From: Treponemataceae bacterium
GTDB taxonomy: Bacteria > Spirochaetota > Spirochaetia > Treponematales > Rectinemataceae
Length of the DNA: 64,000 bases
Assembly (NCBI GenBank): GCA_963677895.2
Contig: CAXXGJ010000017.1
Coordinates: 128,001-192,000, forward strand
Direction of reading: 5' to 3'
A program made the translations under genes and the position numbers. The notes below the pieces were generated by a model. The model was not told where the DNA came from. It worked only from the letters and a program-made list of their open reading frames with translations, and made no database searches. Of the stretch, positions 52,913-64,000 are shown piece by piece. Within the stretch, counting starts at the first letter, position 1; every line of letters starts with the position of its first letter.

Positions 52913-53389
52913 TCAGATCTTGGTGATGTAGGAGGAAATTTCCCTTCTCCAGGGCTGTTTTTCCCCTTCTTTTTCCCAGCGGATCCTGCGTTTCACGATA
53001 AAAGCGCCGTCGTTTCCGCTCTTGAAGCCGACGACGCCGAAGCATCCGGCGCCCAGGTACACCAGCTTCTCTCCGGCCTCGAGGGGTTCGGCAGCGGTTA
53101 CGCGCTCAAGCGCGCAGTCAAAATGAACCGGTTCGCCGGAATCCCTGTCTCCTATGGCGCCGGCTAAATCGAAAATGGGTTTCCCGCAGATCGCGCAATT
53201 CTTGACCGGAAGGGGTTTCTTGGGCTCTTCCTTGCGGACGCCCAGGGTGGAAGCGTCGCGCTGGCCGCGATTGGGTTGCCCTGGCTGCGTTCGCAGGTGC
53301 CCGCCATGCCTTGGCGGACCCGACTTCTGGGAAGGTCGCTTCCCCCCCTCGCCGGGCTGACCGGGATTCTTAGCGTTATTATTCATCAT
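52913..53389 (-). CDS. Hypothetical protein with a probable Zn site
   Basis: CAICGKPI...VHFDC; disordered basic N-terminus. Confidence 0.7.
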   Translation of the reverse strand: MMNNNAKNPGQPGEGGKRPSQKSGPPRHGGHLRTQPGQPNRGQRDASTLGVRKEEPKKPLPVKNCAICGKPIFDLAGAIGDRDSGEPVHFDCALERVTAAEPLEAGEKLVYLGAGCFGVVGFKSGNDGAFIVKRRIRWEKEGEKQPWRREISSYITKI

Positions 53390-53606
53390 TACCCTTCTTT
53401 TTCAGCGTACTTGTCAGGAAATTGGCGATCCGCGTAACCGCGCCGTCGACGTAGGTGTCGTCATCCAATTTATGACGCATCTCATGAAGCTTGTAAATGT
53501 CCTGACGCGTGGAGCCGGCGAGCAGACGATCCGTCGCGTGGCTGTCCCCGGGATTGGAACCTGCCCATGAGAGCGGATCCCTGCCGGTTATTTCGTTTTT
53601 ATTCAT
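53379..53606 (-). CDS. Hypothetical protein (75 aa)
   Basis: ATGA overlap with the yraN stop; overlaps the next start. Confidence 0.6.
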   Translation of the reverse strand: MNKNEITGRDPLSWAGSNPGDSHATDRLLAGSTRQDIYKLHEMRHKLDDDTYVDGAVTRIANFLTSTLKKKGNDE

Positions 53607-53971
53607 ACCGTCTCGTCGAACGCTCCTTCGTAACGCATGGGCTCTCTGCCTGGAGAGAGAAGGAAAACATCGTATCGAATTTTCTTCCCACTATATTGTC
53701 GATACTTTGAGAGGAAAATTTTAGAGGTTTCGATAATTCTCCCGGTTTTCCCTCTGTCGATGGCGTCGCGGAGCTCCATGGAACCGTTCCGGTTCCAGCG
53801 CTTCACCTCCACGAAGGCGACGAGTTCCCCTTTCGCGGCGATGAGATCTATTTCGCCCCGGCCCGCCCTGAAATTACGCGCGAGAATCGTCCAGCCGTCC
53901 CCTTCGAGAAGGGCGTTTACGCGATCCTCGCCCGCTCGGCCCATAGCGCAGGAAGAATCTTTGCCGTCCAT
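53603..53971 (-). CDS. YraN family protein (UPF0102)
   Basis: GRAGED, RNFR, GEIDLIA, FVEVK, IRYDV. Confidence 0.9.
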   Translation of the reverse strand: MDGKDSSCAMGRAGEDRVNALLEGDGWTILARNFRAGRGEIDLIAAKGELVAFVEVKRWNRNGSMELRDAIDRGKTGRIIETSKIFLSKYRQYSGKKIRYDVFLLSPGREPMRYEGAFDETV

Positions 53972-54014
53972 GTCATATATACGGGCGGGTACCGGCGCGG
54001 CGATTCAGAAAAGC

Positions 54015-54042
54015 AAAAAAAACCCGGCAGACGCCGGGTTTT
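54015..54042 (-). terminator. Intrinsic terminator after rplS
   Basis: CCCGGC-N4-GCCGGG stem with T8 on the minus strand. Confidence 0.8.
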
Positions 54043-54091
54043 CTGCGGAAAGTCGGCCTGAAGACGAGTCTTCAGACACCGATGATCAGGC

Positions 54092-54460
54092 CTATTCGGC
54101 CTTCTCGACCTTCTTGGAAATGATAAGTTCCTTGACCTTGGATTTCTTGCCGACCTTGGTGCGGATGTAGTAGAGCTTGGCCCTTCTCACCTTGCCGCGG
54201 CGGAGCACTTCCACGTTTTCGACGCGCGGTGAATTGAGCGGAAAAACTCGCTCCACGCCGACGCCGTAGGAAGTCTTGCGGACCGTGAAGGTTTTGGCGA
54301 CGCCGCCGTTCTTGATCGCAATGACGAGGCCTTCGTATGCCTGAACACGCTCTGTCTTGCCTTCCACGATTTTAAAGCTCACGCGAACGGTGTCACCCAC
54401 GTTGAACGCGGGGAGCTCACTCTTGATCTGTTCGGCTTGAATGGACTGTACCAGGTTCAT
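54092..54460 (-). CDS. rplS: 50S ribosomal protein L19
   Basis: [27 protein letters not shown]. Confidence 0.98.
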
Positions 54461-55187
54461 GCCATCCCCCTTCATCGATTACTTCACGCAATAATCCGCC
54501 CACTTCTTTGGGCAGTTTGTCATCGGACAAAAGCTCGGGGCGGTAGGCCAGCGTCTTCGCGATGCTCGCCTTTAACCTCCACCGTGCGATTTGTGCATGG
54601 TTCCCCGACAAAACAACGTCGGGGACTCGCATAGTAGCATAATTCGCGGGGCGTGTATACTGGGGATACTCGAGTAGACCCTTCGAGAAACTCTCTTCGT
54701 CGAGCGATTCCCCCGAAATAACGCCTGGCTTGAGCCGGTAAATCGCGTCGACGAGAACCATGGCCGCGATCTCTCCGCTCGACAGAACATAGTCGCCTAT
54801 GGAGATTTCATCGGTCACCCTGGTGTCGATGACGCGCTGATCCACGCCTTCGTAGCGGCCGCAGAGGATCACGAGATGTTCCTCGCGCGAAAGCTCGGCG
54901 GCCAGCTTCTGGTTGAAGAGCCTTCCCGAAGGAGTGACGAAGACGGTGCGCACGGTGGGCGAGCCGACGGCTTCCAGCGCCCTGTCGAGGGGCTCGGGCT
55001 TCATCAGCATGCCGGCCCCGCCGCCGAACACCTCATCGTCGCATTTATGGTGCTTGTCGGTGGCGTAATCCCTGAAATTCACGAGCGAATACTCGATCAG
55101 CCCGCTCGCGACCGCGCGCTTCATGATCGAGGCGTCGAAATAGGCTTGCACAATCTCGGGAAAGATGGTCAGGATGGTGAACTTCAT
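54417..55187 (-). CDS. trmD: tRNA (guanine37-N1)-methyltransferase
   Basis: [36 protein letters not shown]; 3' end overlaps rplS by 44 nt. Confidence 0.97.
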
Positions 55188-55810
55188 TCCAGAAGCCATC
55201 CCGCGAGGAGTTCCATGGATCCGGCTTCGCAGTCCACCTCGCCGATGAACTCGTTCCTGAAGGGAACGAGCACCTGGGAGCCCAGGGCCGGGGGCTTGTC
55301 CTCGCCGGAGGTTATGGCCGAGGAGGCGCCGGAGGCGGGGCCGGAAACGGGGCCGGGGGCGCAGCCGGAGGCGGCTTTTCTAGCGAGCACCTTCACCTCG
55401 AGAAGAGGGTCGGCTCCGCCGTCCAGGACGCCCATGATCTCTCCGACGGCAAGGCCGTCCAGCATAAGCTTCATGCCGATGAGATCGTGGATATACCATT
55501 CGTTGCTTTTAAGAGGACTCACGCGATCTCTGGGAAGGTAGAGCTCCAGGCCGGTCAGGGCGCGCGCTTTCTCGGGCGTATCGTAGCCTTCGAAAACGAA
55601 GCTCAAGCCCCAGTCGCCCGACTCGGCGGATTGGATTTTCATCATTTTCGCCAATTCAGGTTTTTTTTCGGGAGCCGCGAGAATTGTCGTGAGACCTTTA
55701 AGATGACTATATTCGCCGGAATAGCTGTGCAGCTTCAGGAATCCATTGAGACCCCGCGGGGCCCCAAGCTTGGCGACGGCCAAAAGTTCCTTGTCGGCGA
55801 CTTTATTCAT
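55184..55810 (-). CDS. rimM: Ribosome maturation factor RimM, with a low-complexity insertion
   Basis: GAPRGLNG, YIHDLIG, LVPF; position between khpA and trmD. Confidence 0.92.
   Translation of the reverse strand: MNKVADKELLAVAKLGAPRGLNGFLKLHSYSGEYSHLKGLTTILAAPEKKPELAKMMKIQSAESGDWGLSFVFEGYDTPEKARALTGLELYLPRDRVSPLKSNEWYIHDLIGMKLMLDGLAVGEIMGVLDGGADPLLEVKVLARKAASGCAPGPVSGPASGASSAITSGEDKPPALGSQVLVPFRNEFIGEVDCEAGSMELLAGWLLE
55304..55375. repeat. Six degenerate 12-nt tandem units in frame in rimM
   Basis: gccggaggttat ggccgaggaggc gccggaggcggg gccggaaacggg gccgggggcgca gccggaggcggc, encoding AASG CAPG PVSG PASG ASSA ITSG on the minus strand. Confidence 0.8.
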
Positions 55811-55819
55811 GGGAGGCGT

Positions 55820-56053
55820 TCAGTCCAGAATCTCCAGGATCACACGCTTGGACTGTGCTGAAGCGCAGGCTGAGAGGATCGTCCGGATGGCTCTGGCGAT
55901 CCGGCCGTTCTTGCCGATCACCTTGCCGATGTCGGCGTCGGCGACCTTGAGTTCAAGAATCGTCGATTTCTCGCCTTCGATAACCTTGATGTCTACGGCA
56001 TCGGGTTCGTCGACGAGGGATTTTACAATATATTCTACTAAATCGCGTTCCAC
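55820..56053 (-). CDS. khpA: KH-domain RNA-binding protein
   Basis: DIGKVIGKNGRIARAIRT; position after rpsP. Confidence 0.93.
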   Translation of the reverse strand: MERDLVEYIVKSLVDEPDAVDIKVIEGEKSTILELKVADADIGKVIGKNGRIARAIRTILSACASAQSKRVILEILD

Positions 56054-56118
56054 TTCGTACTCCTTGGCAAAAAAAAGCGCCGGTCGGCTGTATGGGCCGA
56101 AGAATCGGCCCTCACCGC

Positions 56119-56370
56119 CTATTTGACCTGGATATTTTTCTTGTTGAGCAGGGAGCGAACGGTATCCGAAGGCTGGGCGCCGCGCGCAAGCCAGAATTTC
56201 GCCTTTTCCTCATCTATTCGAATCTGCTTTTCTTCGATTTCGATGGGATGATAGAGGCCGATTTCATCGATGGTTCTGCTGTCGCGGGGCGACCTAGCGT
56301 CCATGATGACTATTCGATAAAAAGGACGGGCTTTCGCTCCGAATTTCTTGAGCCTTATCTTAACGCTCAC
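56119..56370 (-). CDS. rpsP: 30S ribosomal protein S16
   Basis: [22 protein letters not shown] start with AGGAGG RBS. Confidence 0.98.
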
Positions 56371-56460
56371 GGATTCCTCCTGAACTTTATGGAAAATTGG
56401 ACCCTGCTTGAGACACACGTACCCCCGGCTCAGGATCCGAATCGGGGATTAGCGCTCTGA

Positions 56461-56892: not shown

Positions 56893-57585
56893 ATGGAACT
56901 TGAAAAGAGTGTCGATTTCGACTTTTTCATCAGATTTGCGGAAGGATTGCAGAAGTTCCTCGGCGACAAGTGCGAGATCGTCATCCATGATTTTCGAAAA
57001 GGTTTCGAGCACACCATAGTGCACATCATCAATGGGCAGCTGAGCGGACGCGATGTGGGCGGCCCTCCCCGCGGAGGCATGATCTCCAATTCCGGGAAGG
57101 ACATAGAACCTTTCAAGGAGAGCAGGATCTACTTCTACAATGGCACCAACGAGACGAAGGGGCAGATATTCAAATCCTGCACCACCCTCATATGCGACGA
57201 GAACAGGAAGATCATCGGGTCGGTCTGCCTCAATCTCGAAATGTCCGATTTCATACTCGCGCAGAACGCGTTGCAGAATTTCGTCCGCTACAACAATCCA
57301 GACATCTCCACGCTCAAGGAGGAAGATGTGGCCTTCGAGAATGTGGATGATGTTATGCGCTATTATATGGAACAGTGCGAACAGGTCGTTGGCAAGCCAA
57401 TGTCGCTGATGAGCAAAAAAGAGAAGATAAAGGCGCTGGAGTATCTCGACAGCAAAGGTGTTTTTAAAATCACGAAAGCCAGCGTGCTTCTATGTCAAGC
57501 CTTCCATGTTTCGAAATTCACGCTCTACAGCTACCTGGAAGAGGCGAAGGGACTTCGGGAGCCAGCTGATTTGGAAAACTTGTAA
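56893..57585 (+). CDS. YheO/DauR-like regulator (PAS_6 plus HTH_22)
   Basis: CEIVIHDF, INGQLSGRDVG, IGSVCLN, LDSKGVF, VSKFTLYSYL; AGGAG RBS. Confidence 0.9.
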   Translation: MELEKSVDFDFFIRFAEGLQKFLGDKCEIVIHDFRKGFEHTIVHIINGQLSGRDVGGPPRGGMISNSGKDIEPFKESRIYFYNGTNETKGQIFKSCTTLICDENRKIIGSVCLNLEMSDFILAQNALQNFVRYNNPDISTLKEEDVAFENVDDVMRYYMEQCEQVVGKPMSLMSKKEKIKALEYLDSKGVFKITKASVLLCQAFHVSKFTLYSYLEEAKGLREPADLENL

Positions 57586-57603
57586 GGTTAAGTACCAGCG
57601 CAT

Positions 57604-57639
57604 AACGGGTTCTGACAAACGTCAGAACCCGTTTTTTTT
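57604..57639 (+). terminator. Intrinsic terminator after the YheO-like gene
   Basis: 13-bp stem AACGGGTTCTGAC/GTCAGAACCCGTT ending in a T8 tract. Confidence 0.88.
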
Positions 57640-57716
57640 GCCGTTATCCATTTCGGACATGATTGGAGGTATAGGTGAAATGTGGAAGTTTTTACGCAAA
57701 TATTTTAAAAAAAGCA

Positions 57717-57790
57717 TTGCCAGATTTAAAGAGTGCATCTATACTCTCAATATAACATACAGTTAGTATGACTAAATTACTGAATGTATG
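57717..57790 (+). promoter_or_regulatory. Catabolic operon promoter and putative operator
   Basis: TTGCCA-N17-TATACT (57717-57745), then inverted repeat CATACAGTTAGTA-N9-TACTGAATGTATG (11/13 match). Confidence 0.55.
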
Positions 57791-57942
57791 AAGTAGAAGG
57801 AAAATCCAATGCCCATAAAGAGCGCGTCGGCATAAACCGTGTCGCACCCGCTCCGGGAGGGCGCGACAAAAAGGAAAAGGGGGCAACTGTGGGTGACACA
57901 GCGAGCGCGATACAAAAAAAAGAATCGGGGTGTGGCACAACC

Positions 57943-59064
57943 GTGAAAATCGAACGAGTCGAATATATACCGGTGCGGATCGCGAAACGCGGCGCCAAAA
58001 ACGGACTCGGTTGGAAAACGGCGCTGGGCAACAATCCCTACGGCGATGCCGTCATCGTCATTCTTCACGTCGAAGGCGGCAACTTCGGCCTGGGAGAAGT
58101 GTCGTCCATCTGGGACGGCGGCGCCGGCAACCTCGTGGCGGGATTCGGGGAAAGAATAGCCGATTCCATAATCGGGTTGGATGTCTTTTCGGTCTCCGAG
58201 GCGATCGCCCGGATGGACAAGGCGATGGCCTGGAGCAAAAACGCCCTCTGCCTGAAGGCCGGCATCGAGATGGCGATGTATGACCTGATCGGCAAGCTCA
58301 AGGAGATGCCGGTGTATCAACTGCTCGGCGGTAAGCGCCGGGAGCGCATCCCCCTTTCCCATTCGGTCTCGATGGGCACAGTCGATGAACAAGTCGCCCA
58401 AGTGACCGAGCATGTAGCCTGCGGTTTCAGGACGGTGAAAGTGAAGGTCGGCATCGATTTTGAGCGCGACCTGGCGGCCGTGCGCGCCATACGCGAGCAC
58501 TTTGGTCCTGAACTTGGTATCCGCGTGGACGCGAACATGGGATGGCGCGATCAAAAAATGCTCCTCAATGTCGCCTATCAGCTTTCAGCGCTGGGGGTGC
58601 TCTCGATAGAGCAGCCCTTCGCGCCCCACGAGCTTGAGAAACTCGCTTTCATACGCAGGCACAGCCCGATTCCCATCATGCTCGACGAGAGCGTCTGGGA
58701 TCCCGTGGATGCCTTGAAAGCGATCGAAGCCGGCGCGGGGGATATCTTCAACGTTTATGTCAGCGAGTCCGGCGGGCTCAATAAGTCGATGCAGATAGCG
58801 AATCTCTGCGAGACGGCGGGAGTGGGCTTCTGCATCGGCAGCATGCCGGAATTCGGCATCGGGACCGCTGCGGAGCTTCACTTGGGCATCGCCGCGCCGC
58901 GCATCGATCATCCCAGCGACGTGATCGGCAATCTTTATTTCGTTGACGATGTCATAGCAGAAGTTTTGCCGGTAAACGAAGGCTTCGCCTATGCCGTCGA
59001 AGGCCCCGGCCTCGGGGTCAGCCTCGATTGGGACAAGGTGGAGAAATACCGCACCGACAAATAG
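57943..59064 (+). CDS. Enolase superfamily enzyme (mandelate racemase/muconate-lactonising subgroup)
   Basis: GLGE, KxK (KVKVG), metal ligands VDAN/IEQP/LDES, GPGLG; GTG start at 57943 (57889 also possible). Confidence 0.88.
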   Translation: MKIERVEYIPVRIAKRGAKNGLGWKTALGNNPYGDAVIVILHVEGGNFGLGEVSSIWDGGAGNLVAGFGERIADSIIGLDVFSVSEAIARMDKAMAWSKNALCLKAGIEMAMYDLIGKLKEMPVYQLLGGKRRERIPLSHSVSMGTVDEQVAQVTEHVACGFRTVKVKVGIDFERDLAAVRAIREHFGPELGIRVDANMGWRDQKMLLNVAYQLSALGVLSIEQPFAPHELEKLAFIRRHSPIPIMLDESVWDPVDALKAIEAGAGDIFNVYVSESGGLNKSMQIANLCETAGVGFCIGSMPEFGIGTAAELHLGIAAPRIDHPSDVIGNLYFVDDVIAEVLPVNEGFAYAVEGPGLGVSLDWDKVEKYRTDK

Positions 59065-59116
59065 AGAGTGGCCGGTGAGGCACCCTTAGGGCAGCCAAAG
59101 AGGAAAGAAAATCTAT

Positions 59117-59617
59117 ATGGACATCTATGAAAGGCTTGTGCAACTTTTGGTCGAATTGCCGCCGCACACATCTCCGAACGGAAGCTACACGCTGATGGCG
59201 GAGTTCGGCGGGCATTACTTGTATACCTCCGGAACCGGCTGCGCCTCGGGTGGAAAACCCCTCGTCGTGGGCAGGTTGGGAGAAGAAGTCTCGATCGCGG
59301 ACGGGCAGCGCGCGGCGCGTCAGTGCGTGCTGAATGTACTCTCCAACGCGAACGCCTACCTTGGGGACCTGAATCGCATACGTCGTGTGGTGAAAACCAC
59401 GGTCTTCATCGCCTGCGGGGAAGCCTTTGGTGACCAGAGCGTCGTGGCCGAGGGCGCTTCCGAACTTCTCTGCGCGCTGTTCGGCGCGGAGGGACGGGGA
59501 GTGCGCAGCGCCATCGGCGTGAGCTCTCTTCCAAAAAGCCAGGCGGTGGAGATCGAGATGATTTTCGAGTTGAAGGAAATTGGAAAGGAGCGACCGGATG
59601 ATGATCCACTGGAATGA
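59117..59617 (+). CDS. RidA/YjgF/UK114 family protein (Rid1-like)
   Basis: LYTSG, GRLG, GASELL...FG, RSAIGVSSLP, VEIE. Confidence 0.88.
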   Translation: MDIYERLVQLLVELPPHTSPNGSYTLMAEFGGHYLYTSGTGCASGGKPLVVGRLGEEVSIADGQRAARQCVLNVLSNANAYLGDLNRIRRVVKTTVFIACGEAFGDQSVVAEGASELLCALFGAEGRGVRSAIGVSSLPKSQAVEIEMIFELKEIGKERPDDDPLE

Positions 59618-60359
59618 GTTGAGCAAGGATCAATTCGAGCGGTACCGCGATACGGCGACCGTCGCCATCAACTTCGCCTCCACCGAACAGCACTCGAGGC
59701 ACCTCCCGGTGGGCACCGACGCTATCCTCGGCAAGGCGGTGCTGGAAGAGGCGGCCCGGCTGGCCACTTCCCCCATGCTCATCCTGTCGCAGGCCTGTTA
59801 CGGCTATTCTCCCCACCACCGTTTCGCGCCGGGTTATGTCACCATCTCGCAGAACACACTGATCTCCTACGCACGGGACATATGCAAAAGCGTCTACGAG
59901 AATGGTTTCAAAAGAATGTTCCTGGTCAACTCCCACGGCGGCAACCAGGTCTATCTCTCCGCCGTCATCAACGAGATCGGCGAGGAATATGGCGAGAAGT
60001 TTTCCCTCATGGAATTGCGGTACTGGGATGTCGCGGGCCCTCGCATCATGGAGATACGCGATTCGGCGTTGGGTGGCATGGGGCACGCCTGCGAATTCGA
60101 AACCTCGATGATGATGCATCTGCGGCCAGACCTGGTGCAGGCGGATAAAATCGCCGAATGCCCTCCAGTGCCAGGGGACCCATGGTTCCAGATGGATCTG
60201 CTGGGGTTCAAGAAATACCTCAAGTTCTCCAATTTCAATACCTACAACCCCGACGGCCACGTCGGACAGCCGCATCTGGCGACCGCCGAAAAAGGCAGAC
60301 TGTTCTTCGAGGCGGTCACCGAGGAACTGGCGAAATTCTTTGACTATTTCCATGTCTGA
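59598..60359 (+). CDS. Creatininase/MftE family amidohydrolase
   Basis: STEQHSRHLPVGTD, SPHH, NSHGGN, HACEFETS. Confidence 0.9.
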   Translation: MMIHWNELSKDQFERYRDTATVAINFASTEQHSRHLPVGTDAILGKAVLEEAARLATSPMLILSQACYGYSPHHRFAPGYVTISQNTLISYARDICKSVYENGFKRMFLVNSHGGNQVYLSAVINEIGEEYGEKFSLMELRYWDVAGPRIMEIRDSALGGMGHACEFETSMMMHLRPDLVQADKIAECPPVPGDPWFQMDLLGFKKYLKFSNFNTYNPDGHVGQPHLATAEKGRLFFEAVTEELAKFFDYFHV

Positions 60360-60398
60360 AAAACGATGACGAGGCGCTGAATTCGAAGGAGTGTTTGA

Positions 60399-60590
60399 AT
60401 GCCTAAATACAAGATCGAAATAAATAGGGCATGGTGCAAAGCCTGCGGGATCTGTATCGATTTTTGCCCCAAGAAAGTCCTGGGCCCCGATGAGAACGGC
60501 AAGGCTTCGGTGGTGAGTCCGGACGATTGCACGGGCTGCTCCATGTGTGAGCGCCGCTGTCCCGATTACGCAATCAAAGTGGAAGGATGA
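60399..60590 (+). CDS. 2x[4Fe-4S] ferredoxin (oxidoreductase delta subunit)
   Basis: CKACGICIDFCP and CTGCSMCERRCP. Confidence 0.92.
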   Translation: MPKYKIEINRAWCKACGICIDFCPKKVLGPDENGKASVVSPDDCTGCSMCERRCPDYAIKVEG

Positions 60591-60594
60591 GAAG

Positions 60595-61737
60595 ATGGCA
60601 GAACAGCAAGTAAAGCTTTTACAGGGGAACGAAGCCTGCGCGATGGCGGCGCTCGACGCCGGGGTCAGGTTTTTCGCCGGATACCCCATCACTCCCGCGA
60701 CGGAAATCGCCGAGATTCTCGCGAAGGAATTGCCTAAGCTGGGCGGCATTTTCATACAGATGGAAGACGAAATCGCCAGCATGGGGGCCATCATCGGCGC
60801 CTCCATCGGCGGTATGAAAAGCCTCACCGCGACGAGCGGCCCCGGTTTCACGCTGATGCAGGAGAATTTAGGATACGCGGCGATGGTGCAGGTGCCCTGC
60901 GTCATCGTGGACGTCCAGCGCGGAGGGCCCAGCACGGGAATGCCCACGCTTCCATCCCAAATGGATGTGATGCAGGCCCGCTGGGGAACGCATGGCGATC
61001 ACCCGATCGTCGTCCTCTGCCCGTCGACTGTGTACGAGTACTACATCCTGACGATCAAGGCCATCAACTTTTCCGAAATGCTGAGAACGCCGGTCATCCT
61101 TCTGGCCGACGCGATCGTGGGACATCTACGCGAGAAGGTGATTATCCCCGATAGTTCCCAAATCGAACTGGTCGAACGGAAGCGAGCCGCCCTGCCGGCA
61201 AAGGACTTCCTGCCCTTCAAGCCGGATGATGACGATGTGCCGCCCTTCATGCCCTACGGTATCGGTTACCGGTATCACATGACCAGCAACAACTACGATG
61301 AGGGCGGATACCCCGCCACCAACGATTCACAGGTAGCGGTCAAACTGCTCACACGTCTGCATCGCAAAGTCGAGAAGCGTCGCGGCGAAATAATCATGAC
61401 GGAAGAAATCATGATGGACGACGCCGAAATCGCGCTGTTCGCCTATGGATGCACGGCCCGCTCGGCGCACAGCGCGGTCGAGACGGCGCGCCAGCAGGGC
61501 ATAAAGCTGGGCCTGATAAAGGCGCTCACGCTCTGGCCCTTCCCGCGGGAAGTAGTGGAAAAATACGGGGACAAAGTAAAAGCGATCATCGTCGCCGAAA
61601 TGAACATGGGGCAGCTCGTCGGCGAAGTAGAGCGCGCGCTGAAAGACAAAAAGGCGGCCGTGCGCCAGGTGAACAGGTTTGACGGGAAAATGATAACGCC
61701 CGACCAGATTCTCGATGCCGTAAAAGAGGTGAGGTAA
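60595..61737 (+). CDS. 2-oxoacid:ferredoxin oxidoreductase alpha subunit
   Basis: QGNEA, GYPITPATE, QMEDE, TATSGPG, QRGGPSTG. Confidence 0.93.
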   Translation: MAEQQVKLLQGNEACAMAALDAGVRFFAGYPITPATEIAEILAKELPKLGGIFIQMEDEIASMGAIIGASIGGMKSLTATSGPGFTLMQENLGYAAMVQVPCVIVDVQRGGPSTGMPTLPSQMDVMQARWGTHGDHPIVVLCPSTVYEYYILTIKAINFSEMLRTPVILLADAIVGHLREKVIIPDSSQIELVERKRAALPAKDFLPFKPDDDDVPPFMPYGIGYRYHMTSNNYDEGGYPATNDSQVAVKLLTRLHRKVEKRRGEIIMTEEIMMDDAEIALFAYGCTARSAHSAVETARQQGIKLGLIKALTLWPFPREVVEKYGDKVKAIIVAEMNMGQLVGEVERALKDKKAAVRQVNRFDGKMITPDQILDAVKEVR

Positions 61738-62556
61738 ATGTCAGCACATGTTCAGGACTATCTGAGAACGAACAAGATGCCTCATATCTGGTGCCCCGGA
61801 TGCGGCACCGGCATCGTGCTCGGGGCGGTGGTGAGGGCTATCGCCACCATGGGATACAAGCGCGACGAGGTCATGGTCATCACCGGGATCGGATGCTCGG
61901 CGAGGACGAACGCCATCATCGATTTCAATACCTTCCAGACAACCCACGGAAGGGCTCTCAGCTTCGCCACCGGATTCAAGCTCGCCAGGCCCGAGATGAA
62001 GGTAATCGTGATAACCGGCGATGGCGACGGCGCCGGAATAGGGGGAAATCACCTGATCCAGACCTGCCGCCGGAATATCGACATCACGACGATACTGATC
62101 AACAACAGCATCTACGGCATGACAGGCGGCCAGTATTCCCCGCTGACCCCGATGGGAAAATACGCCACGACGTCGCCCTACGGAATGATGGAGCAATCTT
62201 TCGATGTCTGCAAGCTCGCCGAAGGCGCCGGGGCGAGCTATGTGGCCAGGAGCACCGCGTACCACGTGACGCTGCTGGAGCAGCTCATCACTAAGGCGAT
62301 GGCGCACGAAGGTTTTTCCTTTGTGGAAGCCGTGTCCCAGTGCCCGATCGGCTTCGGGCGCCGCAACAAGATGAAAACGCCCACCGCGATGCTCGAGTGG
62401 CAGCGCGACAATGCCGTGAACGTAAAGGCGGCCGCGGCCATGAGCCCCGAAGCGCTGGAGGGCAAATTTACGATAGGCGAGTTCGTGAACAAAAACGTTC
62501 CCGAATTGGTGAAGGCATACGCGGAGCTGAACAAAAACTGCGGCGCGAGAGGATAG
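61738..62556 (+). CDS. 2-oxoacid:ferredoxin oxidoreductase beta subunit
   Basis: WCPGCG, GIGCS, HGRA, GDGD...NN TPP motif, YGMTGGQ. Confidence 0.93.
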   Translation: MSAHVQDYLRTNKMPHIWCPGCGTGIVLGAVVRAIATMGYKRDEVMVITGIGCSARTNAIIDFNTFQTTHGRALSFATGFKLARPEMKVIVITGDGDGAGIGGNHLIQTCRRNIDITTILINNSIYGMTGGQYSPLTPMGKYATTSPYGMMEQSFDVCKLAEGAGASYVARSTAYHVTLLEQLITKAMAHEGFSFVEAVSQCPIGFGRRNKMKTPTAMLEWQRDNAVNVKAAAAMSPEALEGKFTIGEFVNKNVPELVKAYAELNKNCGARG

Positions 62557-62560
62557 GGCG

Positions 62561-63097
62561 ATGGAACGAAAAGAAATAGTCATAAGCGGCTCGGGCGGAC
62601 AGGGCGTCGTTCTGGGCGGTATTATCCTGGCCGAAGCCGCCGCGATCTACGACGACCTCAATGCCACGCATAATCAATCGTATGGGCCGGAGGCGAGAGG
62701 CGGAGCCAGCAAGTCGGAAGTGATTATCAGCGAAGGCGCGATTCATTTCCCCGAAATCGAAAACCCGGACATCCTCGTGGCGCTGACCCAGGAAGCGATC
62801 AGGAAGTATGGGAATACCATAAAATCACAGGGAATACTCATCGTGGATTCCAAGGTCAAGGTCGATGAAGATCTCAAAAGAAAGGCGAAAACCTTCAGCC
62901 TCCCGATAGTGGAAACGGCGATCAGCAAAGTCGGCAACGAGGTGACCGTCAATATGGTGACGTTGGGCGCTCTCGTCGCCATCACCAAGATCGTAAGCAG
63001 GGAATCCATCGAGAAGGCGGTGCTCAATCGAATTCCAAAAGGGACGGAAAACCTGAACAGGAAAGCGTTGGCGGAAGGTTTCGCGCTGGCGGAATAA
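62561..63097 (+). CDS. 2-oxoacid:ferredoxin oxidoreductase gamma subunit
   Basis: GSGGQG, SYGPEARGG, NMVTLG. Confidence 0.92.
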   Translation: MERKEIVISGSGGQGVVLGGIILAEAAAIYDDLNATHNQSYGPEARGGASKSEVIISEGAIHFPEIENPDILVALTQEAIRKYGNTIKSQGILIVDSKVKVDEDLKRKAKTFSLPIVETAISKVGNEVTVNMVTLGALVAITKIVSRESIEKAVLNRIPKGTENLNRKALAEGFALAE

Positions 63098-63137
63098 GCC
63101 AGGAAAATTTGCGCTGGTGAGCAAAGGGAGAATGGTC

Positions 63138-64000
63138 ATGGCAGTCAAAACAAAGGCCGAGTATATCGAGTCGTTGAGAAAACTGAAGCCGACGGTTTAT
63201 ATGTTCGGCGAGAAGGTCGAGAATTTTGTGGACAATCCCAGGATCAGGGCGGGGATCGAGGCGACGGGGGAAACCTATGCGGTCGCCGAGAGCCCTGAAC
63301 ATCGCGGTTCGATGATAACGAAGAGTCCCCTGATCGGGGAGGACATCAACCGCTTCACTCTGCCTCCCGGATCGCGGGAAGACTTGGTGGCGAGAGTGAA
63401 AAACAACCGGATGCTCGGCGGCAGGGTCGGGACCTGCTTCCAGCGCTGCACGGGCCTGGACTGCATCAGCGCCCTCTCCATCGTCACCTACAACATCGAC
63501 CAAAAGTATAAAACTCAGTATAACGCCAGGTTTCTGGAGTTCCTGAAATATGTCCAGAAGAACGATCTCACCTGCAACGCCGGCGTGACCGACGTAAAAG
63601 GCGATCGTTCCCTAGGGCCTTTCGAGCAGGCGGATAAGGACCAGTATTTGCGCGTGGTCGAAGAAAAGGAGGACGGCATCGTCGTGCGCGGTGCCAAGGC
63701 GCATCAGACCGGCTCCCTCTCTTCGCATGAGATCATCGTGCTGCCGACGCGCGCGATGAAAAAAGAAGACAAGGACTACGCCATCGCTTTCGCGCTTCCC
63801 GTGGATACACCCGGAATCATCCACGTCGTCGGAAGGTCCACCCTCGATATGCGCGAGCTTCAGGGCTGCGACCGGGGGAATACGAAATACTCCAAATATT
63901 GCCCCACGGTGATTTTCAATGATGTGTTCGTCCCCTGGAGCCGGGTGTTCATGTACGGCGAGACGGAGTTCGCCGGAGAGCTGGTGATGCGCTTCTCATC
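63138..64000 (+). CDS. 4-hydroxybutyryl-CoA dehydratase (AbfD)-like protein, HpaB fold; partial, runs off the right edge
   Basis: Manual translation: MAVKTKAEYIESLRKLKPTVYMFGEKV...GTCFQRCTGLDC...TDVKGDRS...VRGAKAHQTG; CFQRC Fe-S ligands; GGGAG RBS. Not in the ORF track. Confidence 0.85.
   Translation, partial: MAVKTKAEYIESLRKLKPTVYMFGEKVENFVDNPRIRAGIEATGETYAVAESPEHRGSMITKSPLIGEDINRFTLPPGSREDLVARVKNNRMLGGRVGTCFQRCTGLDCISALSIVTYNIDQKYKTQYNARFLEFLKYVQKNDLTCNAGVTDVKGDRSLGPFEQADKDQYLRVVEEKEDGIVVRGAKAHQTGSLSSHEIIVLPTRAMKKEDKDYAIAFALPVDTPGIIHVVGRSTLDMRELQGCDRGNTKYSKYCPTVIFNDVFVPWSRVFMYGETEFAGELVMRFS

Follow-up and report, generated by a model that had tools for sequence, protein, structure and literature searches.

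An undescribed two-module operon around a variant AbfD-clade radical enzyme in a spirochaete of the family Rectinemataceae

We analysed a 64,000-nucleotide window from the genome of a Treponemataceae bacterium (assembly GCA_963677895.2, contig CAXXGJ010000017.1; G000:C17:128001-192000 in our numbering, in which G000 is the source genome and L numbers are the loci and contigs compared). Its right-hand end holds most of an operon of 14 genes counting the regulator gene yheO, with 13 genes behind one promoter and all on the same strand (Table 1). The operon is genuine and brings known enzyme families together, in an undescribed combination, around a variant radical enzyme related to 4-hydroxybutyryl-CoA dehydratase (AbfD); it consists of two separable modules joined together. 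The upstream module, in its full form, comprises YheO, the importer AbgT, an MLE-subgroup enolase-superfamily enzyme, an amidohydrolase pair, a Rid-family protein and a creatininase-family hydrolase; the downstream module comprises a 2-oxoacid:ferredoxin oxidoreductase (OFOR), the AbfD-like enzyme, a thiolase, a 3-hydroxyacyl-CoA dehydrogenase and a crotonase (Thl, Hbd and Crt), and LarA group 22 (LarA22). Our literature search, which had most subscription journals outside its reach, turned up no publication dealing with this set of genes or with this clade of AbfD. From gene content and sequence comparison, we judge it an evenly balanced proposition that the operon of this anaerobic spirochaete converts its substrate to a 2-oxo acid, then to a substituted 4-hydroxyacyl-CoA, an enoyl-CoA and acetyl-CoA, with a non-canonical substrate for the radical enzyme.

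The AbfD-like protein matches the Clostridium aminobutyricum dehydratase (Protein Data Bank (PDB) 1U8V) at 464 bits, and its structural model has a template modelling (TM) score of 0.95 to it. With this enzyme and that of Nitrosopumilus maritimus (6VJR) it shares 45-46% identity, the fold, the [4Fe-4S] ligands (C100, C104, C297 and H290, canonically C99, C103, C299 and H292), the counterparts of T190 (here T191), R90 and K300, and the thiolase, Hbd and crotonase-family genes that follow. It differs from them in belonging to a separate clade, in having an OFOR or a SucCD-like ligase as partner, and in five swaps (E257 to C255, Y296 to H294, E455 to S442, S456 to D443 and A460 to G447) that are invariant in 120 of the 120 closest homologues (73-98% identity). 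A preprint gives T190, E257, Y296 and E455 as important for dehydratase activity (bioRxiv 10.1101/2020.02.05.935528). Only the threonine is kept; with three of the four named non-ligand residues changed, plain 4-hydroxybutyryl-CoA, one of two substrates put forward in the initial annotation of this DNA, becomes doubtful. Overall, the clade departs from the canonical consensus at 33 positions, many of them in 251-256 and 432-456, losing two Glu and gaining Lys253, His294 and Lys432; we infer the placement of these pocket changes relative to the substrate. A role as an acyl-CoA dehydrogenase was rejected, given Gly447 at what we take to be the position of the catalytic Glu in those enzymes and no electron transfer flavoprotein gene within the operon, to which that search was confined.

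In a tree of 114 rows (quick search, midpoint root; built without some canonical rows and without those shorter than 400 residues), the canonical, sister and variant groups each occupy one side of a branch with SH-aLRT support of 99-100 (99 for the variant group). The variant clade takes in proteins of Syntrophobacter fumaroxidans and Thermanaerosceptrum fracticalcis, and the database name of these proteins is 4-hydroxybutyryl-CoA dehydratase. Among 401 genomes sampled from the phylum, 59 gave an AbfD-type match and only G000 and G258 exceeded 70% identity. The sister clade (a subset of L161-L198, plus L204 and L205) has His at 296 and Ser-Asn at 455-456, keeps Ala460 and often has Lys for Arg90; it is a second uncharacterised variant.

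Gene neighbours were compared across 117 classed loci, after five duplicates had been dropped and with at least 400 nt required upstream. An OFOR lies within 1.4 kb of the variant gene in 27 of 42 loci and a SucCD-like ligase accompanies it in another 7, with no locus having the two together, a pattern that points to two alternative ways to one acyl-CoA. Canonical loci have neither (0/44 for each), and sister-clade loci have mostly the ligase (9/14, against 1/14 for OFOR). Recurrent neighbours of the variant clade are SerA-like, UxaA, IlvD, DHDPS, Hyi, LarA and TRAP/TTT genes, and Ldh_2 adjoins it in 9 of 50 loci. Because the neighbours of the downstream module elsewhere are hydroxy-acid and sugar-acid enzymes, they argue against 4-aminobutyryl-CoA, the other acyl-CoA proposed at the outset.

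Co-occurrence of the families in other genomes had been set as a test by the initial annotation, and a search of 68 other genomes from the window's family turned up the full operon in 3. Three other genomes share the gene order, as do two metagenome contigs as far as those reach. The upstream module also occurs in Firmicutes with the same promoter and candidate operator motif. Ruminococcaceae copies adjoin an OFOR and a close homologue of glutaconate CoA-transferase (1POI, E 9e-105), and a Microbispora copy of the MLE module is accompanied by a KdaD-like dehydratase (2Q18, E 3.5e-61), an aldehyde dehydrogenase and a sugar ABC system. The downstream module recurs in L236, the one locus obtained when 331 genomes of the class that includes G473 were searched. 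Its order is GntR, variant AbfD (79%), Thl, Hbd, Crt, OFOR (58-76%), 2-hydroxyacid dehydrogenase and the beginning of larA22, and its genome gave no MLE match. The same OFOR type stands with UxaA, SerA-like and IlvD genes in L209 and with LarA22 and IlvD in L142. A plasmid search gave no member above 49%, and two class-level searches covered four genomes each.

The window carries a short form of this operon in which abgT, both amidohydrolase genes and an M42 peptidase gene have been cleanly deleted and yfcC gained, so the gene set behind the initial reasoning was incomplete. Scanning GTDB contigs with an MLE alignment left 80 loci, 7 at 69-94% identity and 73 at 40-50%; the nearest named relative is a Rectinemataceae metagenome-assembled genome, 94% identical in MLE. 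Among the seven close loci, AbgT is present in six (L007 begins inside MLE), followed by MLE and the amidohydrolase pair and, on contigs that extend far enough, by the Rid and creatininase-family genes; spirochaetes add the M42 peptidase. A yheO match lies upstream in five of the seven (L003-L006 and L008). Within the window's family, 4 of 69 genomes have MLE at E <= 1e-60, and the other three carry the long operon through larA22. The first junction, near 57930, removed about 1.57 kb, with an extra 75-nt leader deletion near 57875, and left MLE starting at GTG 57943 in frame with the remnant of the abgT start, a fused N-terminus also carried by P0121. The ATG at 57784, which opens the longest open reading frame over MLE, was rejected as the start, homologues beginning at the 57943 position.

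Contigs from runs X1 and X2, of two studies, cross both junctions without differences (X1 may be the window's own source), and metagenome contig L119 has the same three joins, which rules out an assembly artefact. Relocation of the lost genes was likewise rejected: tblastn in G000 gave no match for AbgT or the amidohydrolases and only a 27% paralogue of M42. The undeleted end appears as a loose end at 59104 in X2, X4 and X5, and X2 holds both a bridging contig and this loose end (window 57500-60400); deleted and undeleted forms appear to coexist in at least one sample. Between L119 and the window, the proportion of synonymous differences (pS) is 0.13-0.29 and the non-synonymous to synonymous ratio (pN/pS) 0.02-0.22 over the 10 genes covered, resembling intact-versus-intact pairs. 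For the MLE, Rid and creatininase-family genes, pN/pS between the two deleted lineages is 0.09-0.22, and decay of the short form was not seen in these ratios. The yfcC gene was not found after larA22 in L199/L200, L120 or L202 and gave no match in G449 or G450; L119 stops before its position. It has lower GC at third codon positions, and a low-GC stretch just past it holds a 109-residue open reading frame (L001:14658-14987, equal to G000:C17:198657-198986), presumably transposase-fragment-like, that may mark the route of yfcC arrival.

The deletions separate what we infer to be accessory functions (importer, amidohydrolase and peptidase) from a core of MLE, Rid and the creatininase-family enzyme. 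Numerous homologues of the first amidohydrolase gene have about 530 residues and two matched stretches, so the pair likely forms one enzyme. An Atlas look-up for the amidohydrolase, and fold searches with MLE and the AbfD-like protein, gave family-level answers only. Distant amidohydrolase pairs in L228-L230, with gene order as in G469, are oriented divergently to genes of aminotransferase, Gfo/Idh/MocA and sugar-isomerase-like type; these neighbours, named from their translations, hint at amino-sugar metabolism for the pair.

Table 1. Features of the operon in the window and, with the prefix C17, on the contig past the window's end
Feature	Position	Strand	Basis or remark
YheO/DauR-type regulator	56893..57585	+	Pfam PAS_6 + HTH_22
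Intrinsic terminator after yheO	57604..57641	+	13-pair stem (57604-57633) and T-run
Sigma70-type promoter	57717..57745	+	consensus scan; boxes aligned in homologous loci
33-nt imperfect inverted-repeat motif, candidate YheO operator	57755..57787	.	directly behind -10 box
abgT remnant, 18 codons fused in frame to MLE start	57889..57942	+	DNA alignments with L003, L199, L119
MLE-subgroup enolase-superfamily enzyme	57943..59064	+	Pfam/NCBIfam, PDB alignments
Second deletion junction, near 59105	59065..59116	+	amidohydrolase pair and M42 lost, ~2.8 kb
Rid-family protein, 3D01/PA0814 type	59117..59617	+	Pfam; PDB 3D01 E 2e-26, 9BK9
Creatininase-family hydrolase	59601..60359	+	Pfam PF02633
OFOR delta subunit, two [4Fe-4S] motifs	60399..60590	+	Pfam/NCBIfam
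OFOR alpha subunit	60595..61737	+	NF006412 544 vs cut-off 411
OFOR beta subunit, GCSAR motif	61738..62556	+	best PDB match 8YS5
OFOR gamma subunit	62561..63097	+	Pfam/NCBIfam
AbfD-clade FAD/[4Fe-4S] enzyme, 5' part	63138..64000	+	whole gene G000:C17:191138-192574
Thiolase	C17:192603-193784	+	past window
3-Hydroxyacyl-CoA dehydrogenase	C17:193805-194689	+	past window
Crotonase	C17:194723-195499	+	past window
LarA group 22	C17:195531-196823	+	NF052515 492 vs cut-off 400
YfcC-type transporter	C17:196872-198317	+	past window; hairpin after yfcC

From Rid through the last gene, intergenic gaps range from -17 to 52 nt. As the initial annotation had expected, the operon runs past the window, by about 6.3 kb and five further genes after the AbfD-like gene; its families, strands and reading frames for the genes inside the window also stood up to Pfam, NCBIfam and PDB comparison. 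The yheO terminator hairpin has a folding z of -6.3 (0 of 200 shuffles as good), and its stem is also present in L119, L199 and L003. The sigma70-like site is by itself within chance (7 found versus 4.3 expected); its -35 and -10 positions align in all seven spirochaete and Firmicutes sequences compared. The operator-motif pattern matches once in G000 and at the same position in L003, L004, L005, L008, L119, L120, L199 and L227, with no match in L006 or L009; it was drawn from an alignment of these very loci, and the matches are no independent test. The simplest reading of the motif is a YheO operator. The operon leader gave no Rfam match at gathering score in L003-L006. To the left, the operon region is bordered by a minus-strand cluster (53379-56418) whose genes, going by their translations, we take to be rpsP, a KH-domain protein gene, rimM, trmD, rplS and a YraN-like gene, an ordinary ribosomal and housekeeping cluster.

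The MLE-type enzyme has the capping and barrel fold, three acidic metal ligands and beta-2 Lys of the MLE subgroup (K166-x-K168; D196/E223/D248), and its model (pLDDT 91.6) has a TM score of 0.92 to 3DGB. The fold, the beta-2 KxK and the Asp/Glu/Asp ligands are those of 3DGB, the dipeptide epimerases and cis-3-hydroxy-L-proline dehydratase; unlike them, it has Tyr272 for the beta-6 Lys, and Asp326 where MLE has its beta-8 Glu. It is at most about 31% identical to the solved members compared, and every NCBIfam cut-off is missed (score/cut-off 188/335, 149/500 and 137/500 for the MLE, dipeptide epimerase and hydroxyproline dehydratase families), so the hydroxyproline dehydratase type mentioned initially is not supported, and neither is a creatininase proper. 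In the creatininase-family protein, SHGGN aligns with GHYEN, and scores stay under cut-off for creatininase (109/235 bits), MftE (94/172) and IolN (73/245); it does carry the EQH..D, H and E motifs with which the broader family binds metal. The Rid protein has the YjgF fold, and the Arg of its RSAIG motif, whose conservation had been noted earlier, aligns with that of 3D01 and PA0814 (9BK9) and is kept in 3 of 3 orthologues aligned. The MLE motif N-x-Y-x-x-E is present in 120 of 120 homologues. The wider Tyr-type family (73 of the 80 loci, at 40-50%) has mixed gene contexts that name no substrate; its members (L010-L082), with the same motif, occur in Latescibacterota, Alphaproteobacteria and Rokubacteria, some loci also holding a creatininase-family gene and ABC transporters for polar amino acids, and L063 presumably resembles ectoine-degradation clusters.

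The operon OFOR shares its subunit layout and YPITP and GCSxR motifs with OorDABC-type 2-oxoglutarate:ferredoxin oxidoreductases (8YS5, a subunit of such an enzyme by name, and 6N2N, in which the GCSSR Arg aligns with the beta-subunit GCSAR Arg). We take this Arg to bind the distal carboxylate of 2-oxoglutarate. Unlike that type, it misses the 2-oxoglutarate-specific cut-offs (alpha 391/579, beta 311/364), and a second KorDABG-like set, 49-58% identical and housekeeping-type, adjoins methylmalonyl-CoA genes elsewhere in G000; the separate paralogue weakens a plain 2-oxoglutarate role for the operon enzyme. An OFOR subfamily with GC[AS]AW instead of GCSxR is the partner of most variant AbfD genes (L121-L197).

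Further down the operon, the acyl-CoA dehydrogenase domain PF00441 was not found in G000 or three relatives (4/4 genomes), on which ground butyrate formation was rejected, and G000 yielded no further copy of the thiolase or the crotonase. Together these results indicate that the two enzymes likely oxidise an enoyl-CoA, with flux likely towards acetyl-CoA. The single chained route of the initial annotation thus gains from the Thl, Hbd and Crt genes and the missing dehydrogenase; the two separable modules and the deleted form speak against it. The LarA protein scores above the cut-off for nickel-pincer nucleotide-dependent LarA group 22 (NF052515). G000 has three LarA group 22-like genes (one at L237:4524-5846) and no larC or larE match, and a paralogue sits among glucarate/galactarate dehydratase genes. 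In PMC7583248, Tables S1 and S3 included, group 22 has unknown function and sugar-acid gene contexts; a term search found no mention of the group in the main text of PMC11770544 and PMC12611868. LarA22 without larC and larE suggests a cofactor-independent role or cofactor uptake.

Taken together, conversion of a 2-oxo acid to an acyl-CoA, an enoyl-CoA and acetyl-CoA is the most economical reading of the operon. The starting substrate is likely a sugar-acid-like or amino-acid-derived nitrogen compound, on a route that is likely undescribed. In the long form, AbgT would import a conjugate that the amidohydrolase pair and M42 would trim; in the short form, the free compound would enter through YfcC. 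The beta-2 Lys of MLE would take the alpha-proton, leading to beta-elimination or ring opening to an enamine, the creatininase-family hydrolase would open a lactam-like ring, and Rid would hydrolyse an imine to the 2-oxo acid. OFOR would then decarboxylate this to a 4-hydroxyacyl-CoA with an extra polar group, which the remodelled AbfD-clade enzyme would dehydrate to a 2-enoyl-CoA for oxidation to acetyl-CoA, with YheO sensing the substrate and binding the motif behind the -10 box. For the acyl-CoA, 4-hydroxyglutaryl-CoA is the single most likely compound, and a tentative choice, more probably wrong in its exact identity than right. It would be 2-hydroxyglutarate activated at C5, formed from 2-hydroxy-5-oxoadipate, and would pass through glutaconyl-CoA, 3-hydroxy- and 3-oxoglutaryl-CoA, loss of CO2 and thiolysis. 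It fits best because an OFOR or a SucCD-like ligase could both reach it, and because 2-hydroxyacid dehydrogenases and a changed pocket accompany it. The two Glu lost and the Lys and His gained favour an anionic substituent, as do the Arg kept in the OFOR beta subunit, the glutaconate CoA-transferase neighbour in Ruminococcaceae and the sugar-acid contexts of LarA22 and its paralogue.

Several observations weigh against this proposal. One simple possibility is that His294 and Asp443 take the place of Tyr296 and Glu455. G000 yielded a single carboxyltransferase, in a methylmalonyl-CoA cluster, so no dedicated glutaconyl-CoA decarboxylase was seen, and a 2-hydroxyacid dehydrogenase is not among the operon's own genes. 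The cofactor of LarA22 may be missing, since a search for larC and larE gave no larC in any of 4 genomes (92-97% complete) and no larE over cut-off in G000. The OFORs beside the variant clade are mostly of the GC[AS]AW type without the Arg (16 of 29 beta-subunit rows, which include duplicates and the window's own kin). The KdaD-like and aldehyde dehydrogenase genes of Microbispora imply a C5 pentonate-type product. None of five Firmicutes genomes with the upstream module has a variant AbfD and two have a canonical one, so that, among the loci seen, only those of Rectinemataceae type join the two modules. The neighbour counts are a pattern and no statistic, as they include near-identical pairs and five loci of the window's kin; for 27 of the 46 canonical controls the flank was 1.5 kb or shorter, and 26 of them are from the spirochaete phylum sample.

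The changes in the pocket could also be compatible with the canonical reaction, His294 and Asp443 standing in for Tyr296 and Glu455 and 5-hydroxy-2-oxopentanoate giving plain 4-hydroxybutyryl-CoA through OFOR, which is the hydroxy route of the initial annotation. The intact fold, Fe-S ligands and T191 fit such a route, which would use Crt, Hbd and Thl with no extra decarboxylation, in keeping with the missing acyl-CoA dehydrogenase; the KdaD-like gene in Microbispora implies a C5 backbone, and the 2-hydroxyacid dehydrogenase and LarA22 of L236 would fit 2,5-dihydroxypentanoate. We nevertheless regard it as unlikely, given the 33 differences concentrated in two stretches, the OFOR or SucCD neighbours seen at none of 44 canonical loci, and the Ldh_2 beside SucCD-type loci, which would have no role in this route. 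The same Microbispora cluster, with its sugar ABC transporter, and the IlvD, UxaA and DHDPS genes beside the variant clade would suit a 2-keto-3-deoxypentonate that OFOR turns into 3,4-dihydroxybutyryl-CoA, from which the variant enzyme makes acetoacetyl-CoA (by an enol route), or it reduces crotonase-made 4-hydroxycrotonyl-CoA with OFOR ferredoxin. That Tyr296 and Glu257 are lost would be in line with altered chemistry at C3, assuming that these residues act there. This reading is quite improbable: if acetoacetyl-CoA formed directly, Crt and Hbd would have nothing to do in genomes that gave no butyryl-CoA dehydrogenase, and SucCD-type ligases are known mainly to act on dicarboxylates. A Weimberg-type pentonate route (KdaD and ketoglutarate semialdehyde dehydrogenase) resembles the Microbispora upstream module in its KdaD-like and aldehyde dehydrogenase genes and differs from the operon, which has OFOR and CoA esters instead; neither gene gave a tblastn match in G000.

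That each module occurs without the other, and that four upstream genes were lost without loss of the rest, raises the prospect that the two merely share a promoter and serve different substrates, or that the deleted upstream remainder has a side role only. Such a patchwork seems distinctly improbable beside the order conserved in three other genomes and two metagenome contigs, the purifying selection on the remaining upstream genes and the OFOR that Ruminococcaceae also place beside the upstream module. Rid, the creatininase-family enzyme, AbgT, M42 and YfcC all indicate a nitrogen compound, and changed catalytic residues would suit a new leaving group: a 5-amino-, 5-ureido- or 5-guanidino-2-oxopentanoate could give a 4-N-substituted butyryl-CoA, with the variant acting as an amine lyase like BbuA, the lyase for gamma-butyrobetainyl-CoA. 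We hold this very unlikely, because clade neighbours outside this lineage are mostly hydroxy-acid and sugar-acid genes, the Lys and His gains would disfavour a cationic group, and free 4-aminobutyryl-CoA should cyclise to the lactam.

The preferred 4-hydroxyglutaryl-CoA reading recalls the classical 2-hydroxyglutarate pathway of glutamate fermentation (Gct, HgdAB and Gcd). It would likewise pass through glutaconyl-CoA to acetyl-CoA, and a Gct homologue lies beside the Ruminococcaceae upstream module. The differences are activation at C5 rather than C1, an operon that lacks HgdAB-type genes, and a G000 genome in which a second carboxyltransferase was not found. At its furthest, and rather improbable as a whole, the proposal is that a widespread, mis-annotated FAD/[4Fe-4S] clade dehydrates a carboxylated 4-hydroxyacyl-CoA to glutaconyl-CoA without the ATP-driven activator of that classical pathway. 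It would be the hub of an undescribed anaerobic route for both sugar diacids and 2-hydroxy diacids, plugged onto an undescribed Tyr-type MLE/creatininase/Rid module that strips nitrogen from an amino-sugar-acid lactam.

AbfD genes serve as markers for butyrate formation and for archaeal-type carbon fixation. A large clade with altered catalytic residues that is labelled 4-hydroxybutyryl-CoA dehydratase may therefore be mis-read in many genomes of anaerobes. What the operon contributes is a direction for the flux, a handful of substrate candidates, and a regulator with its candidate operator on which ligands can be screened; its natural deletion sets core genes apart from accessory ones. Named sources for assays exist in the clade members from S. 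fumaroxidans and T. fracticalcis. If the substrate differs from that of the canonical enzyme, the clade would represent new radical chemistry and a new fermentation route.

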